Shown: positions 12,753 to 22,875 of the stretch, piece by piece
Numbering within the stretch: the first letter of the stretch is position 1
Layout: every line of letters begins with the position of its first letter
Assembly (NCBI GenBank): GCA_030295235.1
Contig: AP026172.1
Coordinates: 248,001 to 312,000 of the forward strand
Source: Fistulifera solaris
Taxonomy: Eukaryota
Reading direction: 5' to 3'
Length of the DNA: 64,000 bases
Translations under genes and position numbers: made by a program
The notes under the pieces: model-generated
Databases searched by the model: none
What the model saw: only the letters and a program-made list of their open reading frames with translations
What the model was told of the DNA's origin: nothing

Positions 12753-15671
<2,919 letters not shown>

Positions 15672-16344: not shown

Positions 16345-19300
16345 ATGAACTTTGAAACGAGCTCTACCGTGAGTAGTTCCGCTTTTTCCATGGCATCATC
16401 GAGCTTTCGCAGCCAGCCGACAACTTCTTCTCCACCGCAGTCGTTTAAGGACGCGAAACCGAAAACAACCGGGAGTGTCGGAATCATGCTAGTTGGAATA
16501 GGTGGATACAATGGGACTACTCTCTTAGCGGGTATTATGGCCCATCGCTTGAATATCACGTGGCGAGGACCTTTCGGAGATATACGGACTCCAAATTACA
16601 ACGGTTGCATCACGCAATTAAAGATGAAAGGCGGCGGTGTTGGCTACAAAGATCGCATCAAAGGACTCGCAGATGCTACAACTGCTGCCGTCGGTGGTTG
16701 GGTACGTCGTTTCTATCTTGCTTGCTTCGTTTGAAAAGTATTCTTTCTTTTTTGGGGGGGACCTCACAAAAATTGTGGCAGGATATTCGACCCACTAAAT
16801 GTGGAGATGCTCTTTTGGAACAACAAATATTGGATTATGATCTTGTGCGGCAAGTACAGGACGAGCTTAATAATATTAATATTTTCAAGGGGGCTTACGA
16901 CAGTCGCTTCATCGGTCCTTCGCAACACGCCACCGCGACACACATTCTCACCGAATTCGAGGCCCCGAACGCATCGGAAACCATAAAATGCATAAGAGCC
17001 GATATTCGATATTTTAAATGGAAAAATGGTGTAGTAGGACACACGACAGTCATTTGGAGTGCGAGCGTCGAACCCAACAGTGAATTGGTGGGAACGTGGA
17101 AAACGGTCGATGAATTGCTCATGGCGTTTGAACAAAGTGAATCCAAACGCGGTGGACCCATTCCGCCCAGTCTCATTTACGCTACCGCCGCTTTACTTGA
17201 AGGATGCTCTTTCATTAATGGTGGTTCACAGAACACATTGGGTTGTCCTGGTCTTATGGATTTGGCACGGCAGCAGCAAGGCGTTTATTGTCTGGGAACG
17301 GATTTCAAGGCGGGGCAGACAAAGTTCAAAACCGCGGCAGTGGAATATTTACGAACCATGGGATTGACTCCGTTAGTCATTGCCAGTTCGAATCATTTAG
17401 GCAATAATGACATGCGGAACTTGGCTTCGGCGCCGGATACTTCGAAAGCAAAACTGCGTGTCAAGCACGATATATTTGCTCCTTGGGAAGAAAACATTGA
17501 CCATAAAGTCAGTATCATGTACACGGAGCTTATCAATGATGAAAAACGAGACTTTGTCGAATATACCAGCGCTGGGTTCCTGGGACAGCTTCACACTATG
17601 GTGACTTACACACGGGCGTCGGATAGCGTTTTGTGCGTTCCTTTGATTCTTGACGGTGCAGTCTGGTGTGATTTCTTTTCTCGGTGCAGTTGGCCTTACG
17701 AAAAAGTCGCCAAGGCACTAGCGTATCTCTTTAAGGTACCCGAAGGCGCAGCGATGGGTGTCGATCCCGGATTTTTTGCGCAAATGCGAGAACTCGAAGC
17801 ACAAGTTATAGCAGCAAACGAGAGTCGCGGTTCCGGTAGAGACGCTGGTAAGCGGGTTCGGATCATTACAAATGAAAAGGCAAAGACGGAATGGTCGGTC
17901 CCTGAAGGAGGAGTTATTTGCGCCGGTCTCGCTTGCGTAGACATGCAACTAAACAACGCGACGGGGGGTGACGGCGGAGAAGGAATCGAGTCATTCCAAG
18001 GCGAAAAGAGTATTGGTGGTGGAAGTGTCAGTATGGCGTGCAAAACGCTCGCTCGTCTTTGTCACGGCGAAGCAGTAGATCCAGCACACGCTCCGCCTCG
18101 GGCAGTGTTGTCAAACATAGTTCCGATCTGTAAGATCGGTATGGATGGTACTGGAGACAAGTTGCTGAATTTGTTAGAAGCAACCGGTGAAACATGTCGG
18201 AATGTGAATGTGAGGCACTTGAAACACAATCGTGACCCTGAAGGCAGAACAGCTTTGTCTGTCTTGCCTATCTACCGTGACGGTCGACGCGGATGCTTCT
18301 TTGATGCGGCTTCGAACGTAACATTCTCAGCAATGGAAATCATTTCGGATCTCAAGTCTTTGAGGAATAGAGAAAATTCGTCATATGGTGCATTCCTCTT
18401 CGGCTATCCTCATTTACTCCCCAAACTTCAAGGTGAAGCACTAGCGCAAGTGCTAATTGAAGCTCGCAATGTTCTAGTGAACGGAGGAATATGCGCTGTC
18501 GATTTAAACGGTGTCCCTGAAGTCTTGTTCCAGCGAGACAAAAGAAGCGGTCTCCGCGCTGATATGAAAAGTGACCCCATTATCGGAGCTGCTTTGCAGC
18601 ACACAGACATACTTCACATGAATGTAAGTTATCATTTCACGAATACTTATGGCGTGCTACAAAGGAGAACCTGTACTCACGTGTGTTTGAATCACAGGAA
18701 GAAGAACTGTGTCTGCTTACCGGTTGTATATTGACAGGGAATACCGTACAGGACGACGGAACAATTCGAACAGCAGCCCGGTTATTTTTGGACGCAGGAG
18801 TAGGAATTGTTGTGGTGACCCGAGGTAAGCAGGGAAGCGTCGTATACTGCAATAGTAAACTGCGCTCCACTCTCCCGGCGTTGTGGGAGGGTCGCTCTGT
18901 AACCACACCTGCATCGGTGTTGGCGAGAGGGACGATTATTAACTCCAACGGAGCTGGAGATGCGTTTACTGCAGGATTCCTGTTGGCTGCTATGCTACGA
19001 CACACGGGTTTCGATGTAAAGAGTGACGCGGAAATTAGCAGTCCAGCGTCATCGTCGCGAGGAACTCCCACGAAAATTCCGGCAAAAAAGCAGTTGACTC
19101 CGTATGCCTTGTACATGCAAGAAAACTACCTTACTTTGAAAACGCAACTTCAAGGAGATAAGAAAGCAATATTTTCCAAGTGCCATGAATTATGGGAGAA
19201 TGAATCACCTGCTGTTAAGGCAATGTACGAACGTCGAGCCTCCGAGGAGAGGAATACAGCGAACCAACCCGAGGAAGTGAATTCTTCATTCGACTCCAAC

Positions 19301-19480
19301 CAAATGATGACCGACTCGAATAAAGATCGTACGTTATCATTGGAATCTGCCGCTACATTAGCCACTCTCATCGCCGCGCGCCACATTGATGTTTCCACTC
19401 GAGATGACTTGCATCTGGATTTGAACACATTACTCGAACATTGTCTCTTATTGCCCAACAATGGCCTTGAAGAGATTTAA
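16345..19480 (+). CDS. INO1: Myo-inositol-1-phosphate synthase fused to a PfkB/ribokinase-family kinase with an inserted HMG-box-like domain (~993 aa)
   Basis: MIPS motifs: [65 protein letters not shown]. PfkB motifs: [49 protein letters not shown]-like [13 protein letters not shown]...[16 protein letters not shown]. Introns 16702-16781 and 18624-18697. Confidence 0.9.
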
Positions 19481-19557: not shown

Positions 19558-20705
19558 CTACAATCCCGCAAAAGGATCGTCGTCCTGTTGTGACTGGGAA
19601 ATACTCGTACTGGCCGTATTACTACCGACAAATGGGTCAAAGCCGTTTTGAAATGGAGCTGCCGGTGCGGAAACTACGGCAAACGGATCATGATAAGGAG
19701 CTGGAACGGGAGCTGTTGTGAAATCCAGCAAATCATGACCTGCAAATGGATCTGACGGAGGTTGATGTGCTGGCGGGTACGTGGATAAAGGTGCCGCAGA
19801 AGTGGGTGGTGGTGGTGCCTGATACATGGGTTGTGGTGGCGCCGAATAGGCAATGGTTGCTGCAGAATTGGAATACAAGGATGGCTGTTGTGATACGGTT
19901 GCCGGATAGTTGTTGGGAGTTGATGATGATGGTGCTGTATTCGCCCACGGCATACCATTGTTATTCAATGGCGGCTGCAGCGGTGGCGGCGGCGATATTC
20001 GAGCTGGTTCTGTTCCTGCCGCACCCCAGGGAGGTACATCCGGATTAGCTGGCACTCCATTACTTTGTTCTGTAACACTTTCTCCACTCAATTCCGCCAA
20101 TTCCTTTTCTTTCTCGGTCCGTTTCCTTCGTATCTTTTCCACATCCCTTCGACAAATATCATAAAACGAGCGAATTTCTCGATCTGTCGGCAACCATTGT
20201 TGCGTATCTTCTAATTTTTCTAAATCGGCATACATTTTGACCCCAAATTCTTGTTTGTGTTTCGTGATTTGTCCTTGTACTATGCTCAATTCGGTGGTCA
20301 ATGCGACTTCTTTGCCCGCGTACGCGGTCGTTTTCCCCGCATTGGCCAATTTTTCTTGCCAATTGGTGGCGGGTGCACAAGAAGCGGCTTTTTGGACTCC
20401 CGTCAATTGTACTTTTGTTTCAATTTCCCAACTTTGATTTCGAGTGCGGCAATTTCCCGTTGTGCCGCAATGAAATGCGGTTGTATCGATGCCGTGAGCA
20501 AATCATCCGAACTGTAAAAACTGTGATGTTTCGCGAGCGGTGCCACATAATCATAGAGTTGTACACCAAACGCGTATTGTCGATTGGTCAGTTCGCGATC
20601 AATGAACATCAGATCTGCTTTGCATTTGGCTTGCATCGATGCTTGACCGGCTACTTGTCCAACGGCCGCGGCGCCTTTGATCACGGTCGACCAAAGAACG
20701 TCCAT
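19558..20705 (-). CDS. Hypothetical protein: duplicated helical module plus Pro-rich tail with DPF motifs
   Basis: Two related segments (RQYAFGVQLYD and HKQEFGVKMYA). Tail has several DPF motifs. Two ORFs are joined by a 1-nt frameshift at the run 20413-20416. Confidence 0.65.
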
Positions 20706-21249
20706 TCTGTGCTTGTGAAGAATTGCTGGTCCGTATCAATCAAGGGCTACAGATACAGATACGGCAGCAATACAGTACATGCCAAGTAAGCAAGCAAGCA
20801 AGAAAGAGTGCTTCTGTAGAATATAGATACAGAATGCTTTTTTTTTTGCTTTGCTGGTTGGTTGCAATGCCCGTTTCGGTGCCTATTGACAAGAAATCAA
20901 AATGCACCGCGTGCGCCATCCTGCAAATAATACAGTACTACCTACTACGTAGTACTTACGTGTATGTACTTTGTACGTGGGAAAATTCGCCTTGACGCAT
21001 TCGGTGTGTCGTTGGTGTTGGTGGTGTTGGTTGTTCTACTTCCGATAGGAATAAGTGTAGATTGCTTGTTTTCACGATTGTCGCGTATTTCAGTCATGAG
21101 ACGCAATCATAACCCAAAGAAACGACGAACGAACGAGCGACATCAACAACAAAACAAACAAGGCGACGACCAAAATTTTCGAATATCTATGATCTGCGAA
21201 TGATTATAAAAGTATAACGGTATTATCGTTTACGAAAAACGAAACAAAA

Positions 21250-22875
21250 ATGAGAGTACTTTTAATCATAGTGGCCTTTGTAACGACGACGACGACGACG
21301 ACGACGACTCTTGCGGCAGCCCCGTACACGGCGTACCCAATCTATCCTCCGTACTGTTCGACGCCCACACAAATGCAACAACGTCGTATTCCACCATTAT
21401 TATTAGTAAAGGAAGGCTCGTACGGTGCCTCACAAATCAAACATGTCACGGCCATTATTCGACACGGTGCTCGGACACCGTGGGCTGGAAAATTGCCCTG
21501 TTGGTCCGATTATTACGATGATGCACATCCGCCGTGGAACTGTGAACTCCAAACCACGATCACACCCGAAGTGTCGGCCACGTGGTTTCGCAAACAATAC
21601 GACGCTCTCCAATCTCCCGAATTCAATTTGACGAATGAATTAAGCGGAGGAACCTGTCAATTGGGGCAATTGTTGGCAATGGGGGTCGTGCAAGAACTAT
21701 TGAACGGAGAACACTTGCGGGATGCCTACTTGGGTCACGAGGACAGTCGCATGCAATTATTATTCAGCCAAAATAATAAGAATAATAATCATAATCATAA
21801 TAAGCCGTGGGAATCCTTGTATTATCGAGCAGACGATGAACAACGGACGCTCATGTCGGGACGTGTCCTCTTGAAGGGATTGTTTGGCAATGAAGTGACA
21901 TCGTCATTGACGATTCCGATGCACACGGCCGATTATGAACGAGATATCGTCGGGGAAAACGAAAATGTGTGTCCGCGATTGACGCAACTACGGGAATTGT
22001 TTTATTTGACCGATGAATTCCGTCAATTCAATGCATCGGTTGAAGCCCAACAATTGCGCGACTTTCAACGACGTCAATTGCGTACAGATCACGACCTGGA
22101 ATTGGATTGTTTCATGACGACCATTTGTACGGATCGTATGTTACCCGATGCCATTAATGATTATGCCGGAGAAGATCAAACGGAAAGTATGTTTTTGCGT
22201 CTAGTCAACTTCTATATACGACAATATACCAGTTTTGCCATGGCCAATGATGCGGAATACAGCAAGTTGGCGATGGGTCCCTTGTGGGCGGAAATTATGG
22301 ACAATGTCGATCGTGTCATTGCGGAGAACGACGACACATACCCGCGCTTGGCGCTCTTCAGTGGACACGATACCACCATTATTGGTCTCCTCGCGAGTTT
22401 ATCGAAAGTATACGATGGCTCGTGGCCTCCGTACGCTAGTAAATTGTTGTTGGAAATTCACGAGATTGATCTGGATGGTCGAAAAGATAAATCATTGTAC
22501 ACGACAGGATATGGTTTTCGATTGATTTACAATGGTCAAGTGTTAACTGACAAAGTGGAAGGATGCCCCAAAGACGCTCACATTTGTGATGTCGCCATAT
22601 TGAAACGTCATTTGAATTTCCCGTTGCGGGATCGCGATTGCTCACTGTTGGATATTCCGACGACCGCATCATCATCTTCTTCATCATCGGAGAGTGGTAT
22701 GGCTCAAGTCTTTGATTTGTTTCTGTCACCATCAGGCTTTGGAGTCTTTGTGGTCGTTGTGTTGAGTAGTATGGCCGTAGGCAGTGTCCTCATGTTTGTG
22801 TTGTTATCGAAACTGCAACCTCAATTGATTCATCGAAGATCGTACGGAGCGGCCTCTCAAGAAAATCCTGAGTAG
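21250..22875 (+). CDS. Histidine acid phosphatase (branch 2), type I membrane protein
   Basis: Signal peptide; IRHGARTP, GQL, QRTLMS and FSGHDTT motifs; WPPYAS; C-terminal TM helix and a YGAA tail. Confidence 0.9.
   Translation: MRVLLIIVAFVTTTTTTTTTLAAAPYTAYPIYPPYCSTPTQMQQRRIPPLLLVKEGSYGASQIKHVTAIIRHGARTPWAGKLPCWSDYYDDAHPPWNCELQTTITPEVSATWFRKQYDALQSPEFNLTNELSGGTCQLGQLLAMGVVQELLNGEHLRDAYLGHEDSRMQLLFSQNNKNNNHNHNKPWESLYYRADDEQRTLMSGRVLLKGLFGNEVTSSLTIPMHTADYERDIVGENENVCPRLTQLRELFYLTDEFRQFNASVEAQQLRDFQRRQLRTDHDLELDCFMTTICTDRMLPDAINDYAGEDQTESMFLRLVNFYIRQYTSFAMANDAEYSKLAMGPLWAEIMDNVDRVIAENDDTYPRLALFSGHDTTIIGLLASLSKVYDGSWPPYASKLLLEIHEIDLDGRKDKSLYTTGYGFRLIYNGQVLTDKVEGCPKDAHICDVAILKRHLNFPLRDRDCSLLDIPTTASSSSSSSESGMAQVFDLFLSPSGFGVFVVVVLSSMAVGSVLMFVLLSKLQPQLIHRRSYGAASQENPE

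Follow-up and report, generated by a model that had tools for sequence, protein, structure and literature searches.

HMG boxes are hallmark modules of chromatin and transcription proteins. They make up free chromatin proteins of the HMGB type, such as HMGB1, HMG-D, NHP6A or Plasmodium HMGB (PDB entry 2mrc), and others, such as those of UBF and BAF57, are parts of nuclear transcription or remodelling proteins and not of metabolic enzymes. In yeast and animals, inositol phosphates regulate chromatin remodelling and mRNA export, and with inositol polyphosphate multikinase (Arg82/IPMK) an inositol-phosphate enzyme with a role in transcription is known. Among the PfkB-like proteins, FLN1 and FLN2 of plants are described in the available part of PMC3409070 as belonging to the plastid RNA polymerase complex. 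Both cases are functional analogies only for the gene considered here, since neither is homologous to it in the relevant part and none uses an HMG box. From the diatom Phaeodactylum tricornutum, the available part of PMC13490174 describes PtHMG1, a free-standing HMGB-like regulator of 342 residues with a disordered-box-disordered layout; this layout is like that of the protein reported below, but PtHMG1 is encoded by a separate gene, and neither "inositol" nor "kinase" is mentioned in the article. Here we describe a gene of Fistulifera solaris in which an HMG box appears to be maintained under constraint within a metabolic kinase that is itself fused to myo-inositol-1-phosphate synthase (MIPS, INO1), the first enzyme of inositol synthesis. 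The gene lies in a stretch of 64,000 nucleotides (contig AP026172.1, positions 248,001 to 312,000; hereafter the window, with position 1 as its first letter). We found no description of a MIPS-PfkB-HMG protein in the literature, nor of any other PfkB-family protein with an HMG box in the same loop, and to our knowledge no such PfkB-family member has been recognized.

An earlier note on this DNA, made from the letters alone, had pointed out an HMG-box pattern at 19085..19250. In exon 3, the in-frame translation of bases 19085-19249 of the forward strand is identical to [55 protein letters not shown]; the start and the translation of the claimed span were thus correct, whereas its end has to be moved one base upstream, to the end of the last codon at 19249. 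Pfam assigned HMG_box (PF00505) to exon 3 with 25.7 bits (E 1.6e-5), which exceeds the curated cut-off of 25.4 by a margin of 0.3 bits, and to the excised 106 residues (19013-19330) with 28.4 bits (E 2.2e-6). HMG_box_2 stayed under its own cut-off (17-20 versus 22.4 bits). Marginal when taken alone, the match was reproduced in the family: a search for relatives yielded 93 proteins, nearly all of them diatom MIPS-PfkB fusions, and HMG_box was found at E <= 0.1 in 92 of them (47/47 and 45/46), reaching the cut-off in 19. The suspected HMG-box pattern thereby held up in the profile search that had been proposed for it. For 19 of the 93 relatives PF00505 is already precomputed, meaning that the architecture is implicit in existing database domain tables.

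Structure prediction gave a consistent picture. When the 106-residue piece was modelled with AlphaFold2 on a 103-row alignment, three helices were predicted (residues 30-45, 50-63 and 66-83 of the piece), with mean predicted local distance difference test scores (pLDDT) of 91, 93, 94, 95 and 87 for the ten-residue blocks from residue 31 to 80 and values < 50 in both flanks. The three-helix fold anticipated in the earlier note is therefore predicted with confidence, and the same helices recur in a full-length model of the closest database relative (P0002; Fistulifera solaris, 986 residues). All 48 matches listed by Foldseek against the PDB were HMG boxes (probability 0.51-1.00), among them those of HBP1, HMGB1/2/3, UBF (boxes 4 and 5), NHP6A, HMG-D, SOX, LEF-1, SSRP1, BAF57, TFAM and Abf2p. 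The best superpositions among the matches listed had a root-mean-square deviation (rmsd) of 1.1-2.5 Å over about 60 columns and template modelling (TM) scores, normalized to the target, of up to 0.84. They included UBF box 5 (2hdz; TM 0.82, rmsd 1.1 Å) and the HMG domain of BAF57 (7cyu; TM 0.84, rmsd 1.5 Å), both with a sequence identity of only 14-20% and with E-values (0.48 and 1.5) that are not significant alone. On the basis of its profile match, its core residues and its predicted fold, we assign the segment to the HMG-box family as a genuine member.

The enzyme around the box is recognizable in both halves. The fusion gene comprises three exons encoding 119 + 614 + 260 = 993 residues plus a stop codon (ATG at 16345, stop at 19478-19480). 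In exon 2, the MIPS half is identified by NAD_binding_5 (PF07994, E 5.9e-40) and Inos-1-P_synth (PF01658, E 7.6e-20), and PfkB (PF00294) is found with 30.6 bits from exon 3 alone and with 45 bits in P0002 (residues 512-826). In a Foldseek comparison with the PDB, the full-length model of P0002 matched MIPS from yeast, rice and worm (E 1.5e-21 to 1e-19) and ribokinases (E 2e-15 to 7e-13, TM normalized to the target about 0.7). The kinase half thus has the profile, the N-G-A-G-D and NxxE motifs and the fold in common with the PfkB/ribokinase family, but its sequence is very divergent: with the box-less relative P0125 as phmmer query, no PDB chain was retrieved at E <= 0.01, and NCBIfam returned only PfkB matches far under their cut-offs and no substrate assignment. 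Since N84, G85, A86, G87 and D88 are invariant across 94 aligned rows and the Asn and Glu of NxxE are invariant as well (N728 and E731 in alignment A4), the kinase half looks catalytically competent. PfkB-type myo-inositol kinases exist, and the fusion to MIPS suggests, by analogy, inositol or an inositol phosphate as the substrate. PMC4765147 and PMC5931981 each mention pfkB together with myo-inositol kinase.

Both exon junctions (GGW|DIRP and HMN|EEEL) are contiguous in P0002, whose sequence [15 protein letters not shown] confirms the junction at intron 2. The last residue encoded by exon 2 is the Asn of NxxE, and intron 2 cuts this catalytic motif exactly between the Asn and the run of Glu residues (18621-18706). 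Over exon 3, the window protein and P0002 are 90% identical, and with 993 versus 986 residues they are not the same sequence; this difference would fit a second homeologous copy in the allodiploid Fistulifera solaris, or a close relative. A mis-joined gene or a retained intron was ruled out, because the box and both PfkB parts lie in one uninterrupted reading frame of exon 3 and do so likewise in the relatives.

The N-G-A-G-D motif (18947-18961), which contains the anion hole and the catalytic Asp, lies upstream of the box and [17 protein letters not shown] (19337-19387) downstream of it. In the P0002 model, which was built on a 64-row alignment and has a mean pLDDT of 78.6, the GAGD helix (814-827) is followed by a segment with pLDDT < 50 (836-854), the three box helices (861-876, 881-893 and 897-919), a second low-confidence segment (918-934) and a PfkB helix (941-956) in blocks with mean pLDDT of 96 and 90. 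In box-less relatives, only 2-17 residues separate the GAGD helix from the last PfkB helix, compared with about 105-150 in box-bearing proteins. The location that had been claimed for the box, after the GAGDAFTAG helix and before the terminal helix of PfkB, is confirmed by this model and by the box-less relatives, and the description of the linkers as Ser-rich likewise agrees with our data, with 6 Ser among the 24 residues of the N-side linker (19010-19081).

The box is as well conserved as the enzyme that carries it. In an alignment of 93 rows, from which P0094 was left out, the majority residue accounted for a fraction of 0.76 of the rows in the box, compared with 0.72 for the PfkB core of exon 3 and 0.68 for the C-terminal helices, versus 0.26 and 0.42 in the linkers before and after the box. 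Almost every row has a box of 54 residues, with 58 as the maximum, and the linker lengths vary from 22 to 65 residues before it and from 27 to 69 after it. Even between the window protein and P0002, 56 of 57 box residues are identical, compared with 17 of 24 and 22 of 28 in the two linkers. Numbered along the exon-3 translation (P0001), Y136, F159, C162 and W166 are invariant, and K131, T134, P135, L138, Y139, M140, E142, Y144, L147, K148, D154, K155, I158, H163, E167, E169, K174, Y177 and R179 each recur in 84 or more of the 93 rows. The aromatic core formed by Y136, Y139 (90/93), F159, W166 and Y177 (88/93) aligns with its counterparts in TOX, HMGB1 and Plasmodium HMGB. To judge from these alignments, the box is maintained by selection, with a constraint as strong as that on the catalytic core. 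The conservation in orthologs that the earlier note had asked about is thus present.

In its Pfam family, three-helix fold, aromatic core and basic arm, the diatom box resembles HMGB-type boxes such as HMGB1 box A, HMG-D, NHP6A and 2mrc. Its FSK-C-x-E-x-W aligns with FSKKCSERW of HMGB1 and its TPYALY with SAYMFY of 2mrc, and the acidic stretch behind it resembles the acidic tails of HMGB proteins. In contrast to these boxes, it is inserted in an enzyme domain and is not part of a free chromatin protein, it is nearly neutral, it has a small or polar residue at the position of the SAYM Met, and the core Trp is followed by the acidic motif WENE. It is also shorter (54 residues), and its loop between helices 1 and 2 has 3 residues fewer than that of 2mrc. 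In HMGB1, a pair of Cys residues in helices 1 and 2 constitutes a redox switch. Cys162 of the diatom box (19181-19183, helix 2) aligns with the Cys of the HMGB1 motif, and helix 1 ends at position 151 with a second Cys in 47 of the 93 relatives and with Leu in the window protein (19148-19150); by analogy, about half of the family may possess an HMGB1-like redox switch.

Among the few named matches from which we derived the taxonomic range, the box occurs in raphid pennate diatoms (Fistulifera, Seminavis, Amphora, Epithemia, Nitzschia, Pseudo-nitzschia, Mayamaea and an Amphiprora-like MMETSP entry) and in a Chaetoceros-like centric diatom. An exhaustive phmmer search with exon 3 against 1.84 billion representative sequences retrieved only 86 proteins at E <= 0.001, most of which are fragments belonging to this family; because no free-standing HMG protein was among them, no recent donor of the box is visible. 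The close relatives P0125, P0130 and P0137, whose kinase parts show about 50% identity, have only 5-17 residues at the site of the box. This may reflect loss, paralogy, a splice variant or a gene-prediction artefact, or a state predating the gain. The box is likewise absent from more distant relatives, of which P0167 and P0162 are MIPS-PfkB fusions and P0156 and P0174 PfkB proteins, and the existence of such fusions indicates that the MIPS-PfkB fusion is more widespread than the insertion of the box. P0094 (31% identical), the only one of the 93 relatives without a Pfam HMG_box match at E <= 0.1, contains a degenerate segment at the box site. In P0094 and P0142, the length of the insert is kept and the HMG signature is lost, including the Trp and most of helices 2 and 3, which looks like decay of the box in this lineage.

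A tree was calculated from 48 PfkB domains after removal of the insert columns, using 39 of the 93 relatives and omitting P0161 because of its aberrant C-terminus. It contained a clade of 25 pennate box-bearing rows with a Shimodaira-Hasegawa-like approximate likelihood ratio (SH-aLRT) of 97 and a second clade of 10 box-bearing rows including the Chaetoceros-like sequence (SH-aLRT 98); P0094 is attached to this second clade with a value of 84. The tree gave no resolution along its backbone and P0125, P0130 and P0137 had no placement, so that the order of gain and loss of the box is not given by the tree. Two further, distant PfkB relatives, P0147 (approximately residues 85-215) and P0169 (approximately 265-345), carry in the same loop a basic tract (net charge +8 and +12, respectively) followed by a box-like segment of 60-62 residues with the pattern F-x-L-F...C-x-R-x-W...K-x-E. 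They are 40% identical to each other (E 1e-26), and Pfam HMG_box was absent from both inserts at E <= 1. Compared by hhalign with the profile of the diatom insert (A3), P0147 scored a probability of 96.8, flanking PfkB helices included, and P0169 only 27. This insert may represent an older or a parallel version of the box insertion.

The question arises what an HMG box may do within this enzyme. We tentatively favour a function as a tethering module with weak, sequence-unspecific binding to DNA or chromatin, to which we assign a probability of roughly 40%. Mounted on two flexible, low-complexity leashes in a surface loop of the kinase, the box could bind autonomously: its basic arm, KK-x-L-T-P-Y, and the concave side of helices 1 and 2 would contact DNA or chromatin weakly and without sequence specificity. 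Such a tether would place, or hold, part of an inositol-phosphate-producing enzyme at chromatin. The length of the linkers and their lack of conservation make an autonomous module the more likely mode of action, and any coupling to catalysis would more probably be achieved through location than through tight allostery. A DNA or chromatin ligand is favoured by the family membership, by the conserved basic arm (K130 in 47, K131 in 84 and K132 in 65 of the 93 rows), by the Lys pair ahead of helix 2 (K155 91/93, K156 82/93) and by Ser/Thr-Pro sites in the N-side linker. The latter are present as [ST]P in 72 of the 93 relatives and as [ST]Px[KR] in 37, including TPTK in the window protein. Phospho-regulation is known for other HMG proteins, and the position of these sites next to the arm suggests something similar here; together with the acidic linker behind the box, they could modulate binding. 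The strongly basic tracts of P0147 and P0169 would fit an ancestral nucleic-acid-related or nuclear role.

Several observations weigh against a DNA or chromatin tether and call for caution towards the moonlighting role in chromatin or transcription, coupled to a metabolite, that the earlier note had suggested. Database searches of the PDB with sequences or profiles gave HMG proteins only at E >= 0.036, namely Plasmodium HMGB (2mrc) at E 0.036 with the single sequence and TOX HMG (E 0.14) and HMGB1 (E 0.34-0.64) with the insert profile A3; in addition, the Foldseek E-values among the matches listed ranged from 0.12 to 2.4, none being <= 0.001. The box carries a median net charge of only +2 (range -3 to +5), whereas canonical DNA-binding HMG boxes are much more basic, and the C-side region (exon-3 residues 183-214) has a median net charge of -6. 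In HMGB1, the acidic tail masks the box, and by analogy the acidic linker could do the same in the diatom protein. Where a basic residue usually follows the core Trp, the diatom box has a conserved acidic W-E-N-E. Position 137, which is aligned with the Met of SAYM in 2mrc and which we take to correspond to the DNA-intercalating wedge of HMG-D/NHP6A-type boxes, is Ala in the window protein and Thr (37), Ser (23), Ala (13), Gln (10) or Asn (10) in the relatives, so that the typical hydrophobic wedge after the conserved Tyr is missing. As the wedge is typical but not universal and some true HMG boxes do without it, its absence bears on the mode of binding and not on family membership. Conserved exposed residues of both charges, Cys162 and His163 (87/93) would suit a protein interface equally well, and the existence of close relatives without the box indicates that the enzyme can do without it. 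In the same PDB searches, CXXC1, the top match of the A3 profile (E 0.045 over 28 residues), and the allophagy receptor ALLO-1, found with the single sequence (E 0.031), were taken as spurious.

Many of these features would be expected if the HMG fold had been re-used as a protein-protein adaptor, which we consider nearly as likely as the tether. The specific partner recruited in this way could be an import factor, a regulator or a further enzyme of inositol-phosphate metabolism. The near-neutral charge, the polar or small residue at position 137 and the invariant C162 next to the nearly invariant H163 are in line with such a function, as is the retention of an acidic surface (E142 92/93, D154 89/93, E167 91/93, E169 90/93, and E183/E184), and a long flexible leash suits the capture of an external partner. 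However, no partner is known or predicted, protein-binding HMG boxes usually bind DNA too, and the conserved basic arm, the Lys pair before helix 2 and the basic tracts of the distant relatives are commoner in nucleic-acid binding or nuclear import.

It is doubtful that the box acts as an intramolecular regulator, docking on the kinase or the synthase, or receiving the acidic linker, and thereby gating the nucleotide site or the oligomeric state. In ribokinase-type kinases, the loop after the GAGD helix borders the nucleotide pocket, and the insertion comes right after this helix; moreover, box and enzyme core are equally conserved. On the other hand, the length, the variability and the predicted disorder of both linkers argue against a tight mechanical coupling. 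Still less probable is a role mainly in nuclear or organellar targeting, with the basic arm as an import signal and no function after import. The K-K-K cluster at the N-terminus of the box, the basic tracts in P0147 and P0169 and the Ser/Thr-Pro sites beside the arm could be read in this way, but a signal would not need 54 residues of invariant length with a conserved hydrophobic core, and the arm of the window protein is merely PAKKQL. We regard it as very improbable that the match arose by chance or from low complexity, or that the box is a decaying remnant without function: the narrow Pfam margin, the 74 of 93 relatives under the cut-off and the degenerate segment of P0094 would point that way, but are outweighed by the match in 92 of 93 relatives, the conservation of 0.76 versus 0.26-0.42 in the linkers, the four invariant residues and the confidently predicted fold.

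A more far-reaching version of the tether, which we regard as unlikely, is a chromatin-resident MIPS-kinase that synthesizes inositol phosphates locally, or that reads out glucose-6-phosphate or inositol status via DNA binding and gene expression. If this were the case, the protein would be a metabolite-coupled architectural factor without counterpart in animals, fungi or plants. The presence of a box under such constraint in both diatom clades sampled suggests that inositol-phosphate metabolism may be directly and physically connected to DNA or to processes in the nucleus in a major group of primary producers of the ocean, and an enzyme with a built-in DNA-type module would make the connection between inositol phosphates and chromatin testable in a single protein. 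If the box binds a protein instead, the diatom fusion would be a clean natural case of domain insertion that re-uses the HMG fold.

Table 1. Coordinates of the MIPS-PfkB fusion gene and its parts in the window.
Feature	Position	Strand	Basis
Whole gene, MIPS (INO1)-PfkB kinase fusion with HMG-box insert	16345..19480	+	reading frames, GT..AG introns, Pfam
Exon 1, N-terminus rich in Ser, and beginning of the NAD-binding domain of MIPS	16345..16701	+	Pfam NAD_binding_5, E 3.4e-12, residues 45-99
Intron 1, 80 nucleotides, GT..AG	16702..16781	+	splicing restores the frame
Exon 2, remaining MIPS, inter-domain linker, N-terminal PfkB half (from about 17905)	16782..18623	+	Pfam
Intron 2, 74 nucleotides, GTAAGT..CAG	18624..18697	+	divides the PfkB N|EEE motif; P0002 junction
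Exon 3 (18698-19480), C-terminal half of PfkB core and GAGD helix	18698..19009	+	Pfam PfkB, E 2.9e-07
N-side linker, 24 residues, Ser/Pro/Thr-rich, contains TPTK	19010..19081	+	pLDDT < 50
HMG box with basic arm KK(Q/K)LTPY, Pfam envelope, exon-3 residues 130-189	19085..19264	+	Pfam, AlphaFold2, Foldseek
HMG box, three helices	19100-19147, 19160-19201, 19208-19261	+	AlphaFold2
C-side acidic linker	19265..19336	+	pLDDT < 50
Last PfkB helices ([17 protein letters not shown]...), C-terminus ...GLEEI, stop	19337..19480	+	P0002 model, box-less relatives

Directly 3' of the fusion gene lies a convergent gene (19558-20735, minus strand) whose product has a Pro/Gln-rich tail with DPF motifs and matches no Pfam family at E < 0.01. 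On the plus strand, the next gene downstream of the fusion gene (21250-22872), at a distance of about 1.8 kb, codes for a branch-2 histidine phosphatase (Pfam His_Phos_2, E 8.4e-21; RHGARTP motif) with a hydrophobic N-terminus and a C-terminal hydrophobic stretch. Branch 2 of the histidine phosphatases includes phytases and inositol-polyphosphate phosphatases, and the position of this gene beside an inositol gene may be meaningful. Upstream of the fusion gene, a large open reading frame on the plus strand (12753-15668) begins with a signal-like N-terminus and contains three DUF7467 repeats (Pfam, E 1.7e-61) besides long (Pro-Val)n tracts; to judge from these features, its product is probably a secreted or cell-surface diatom protein.

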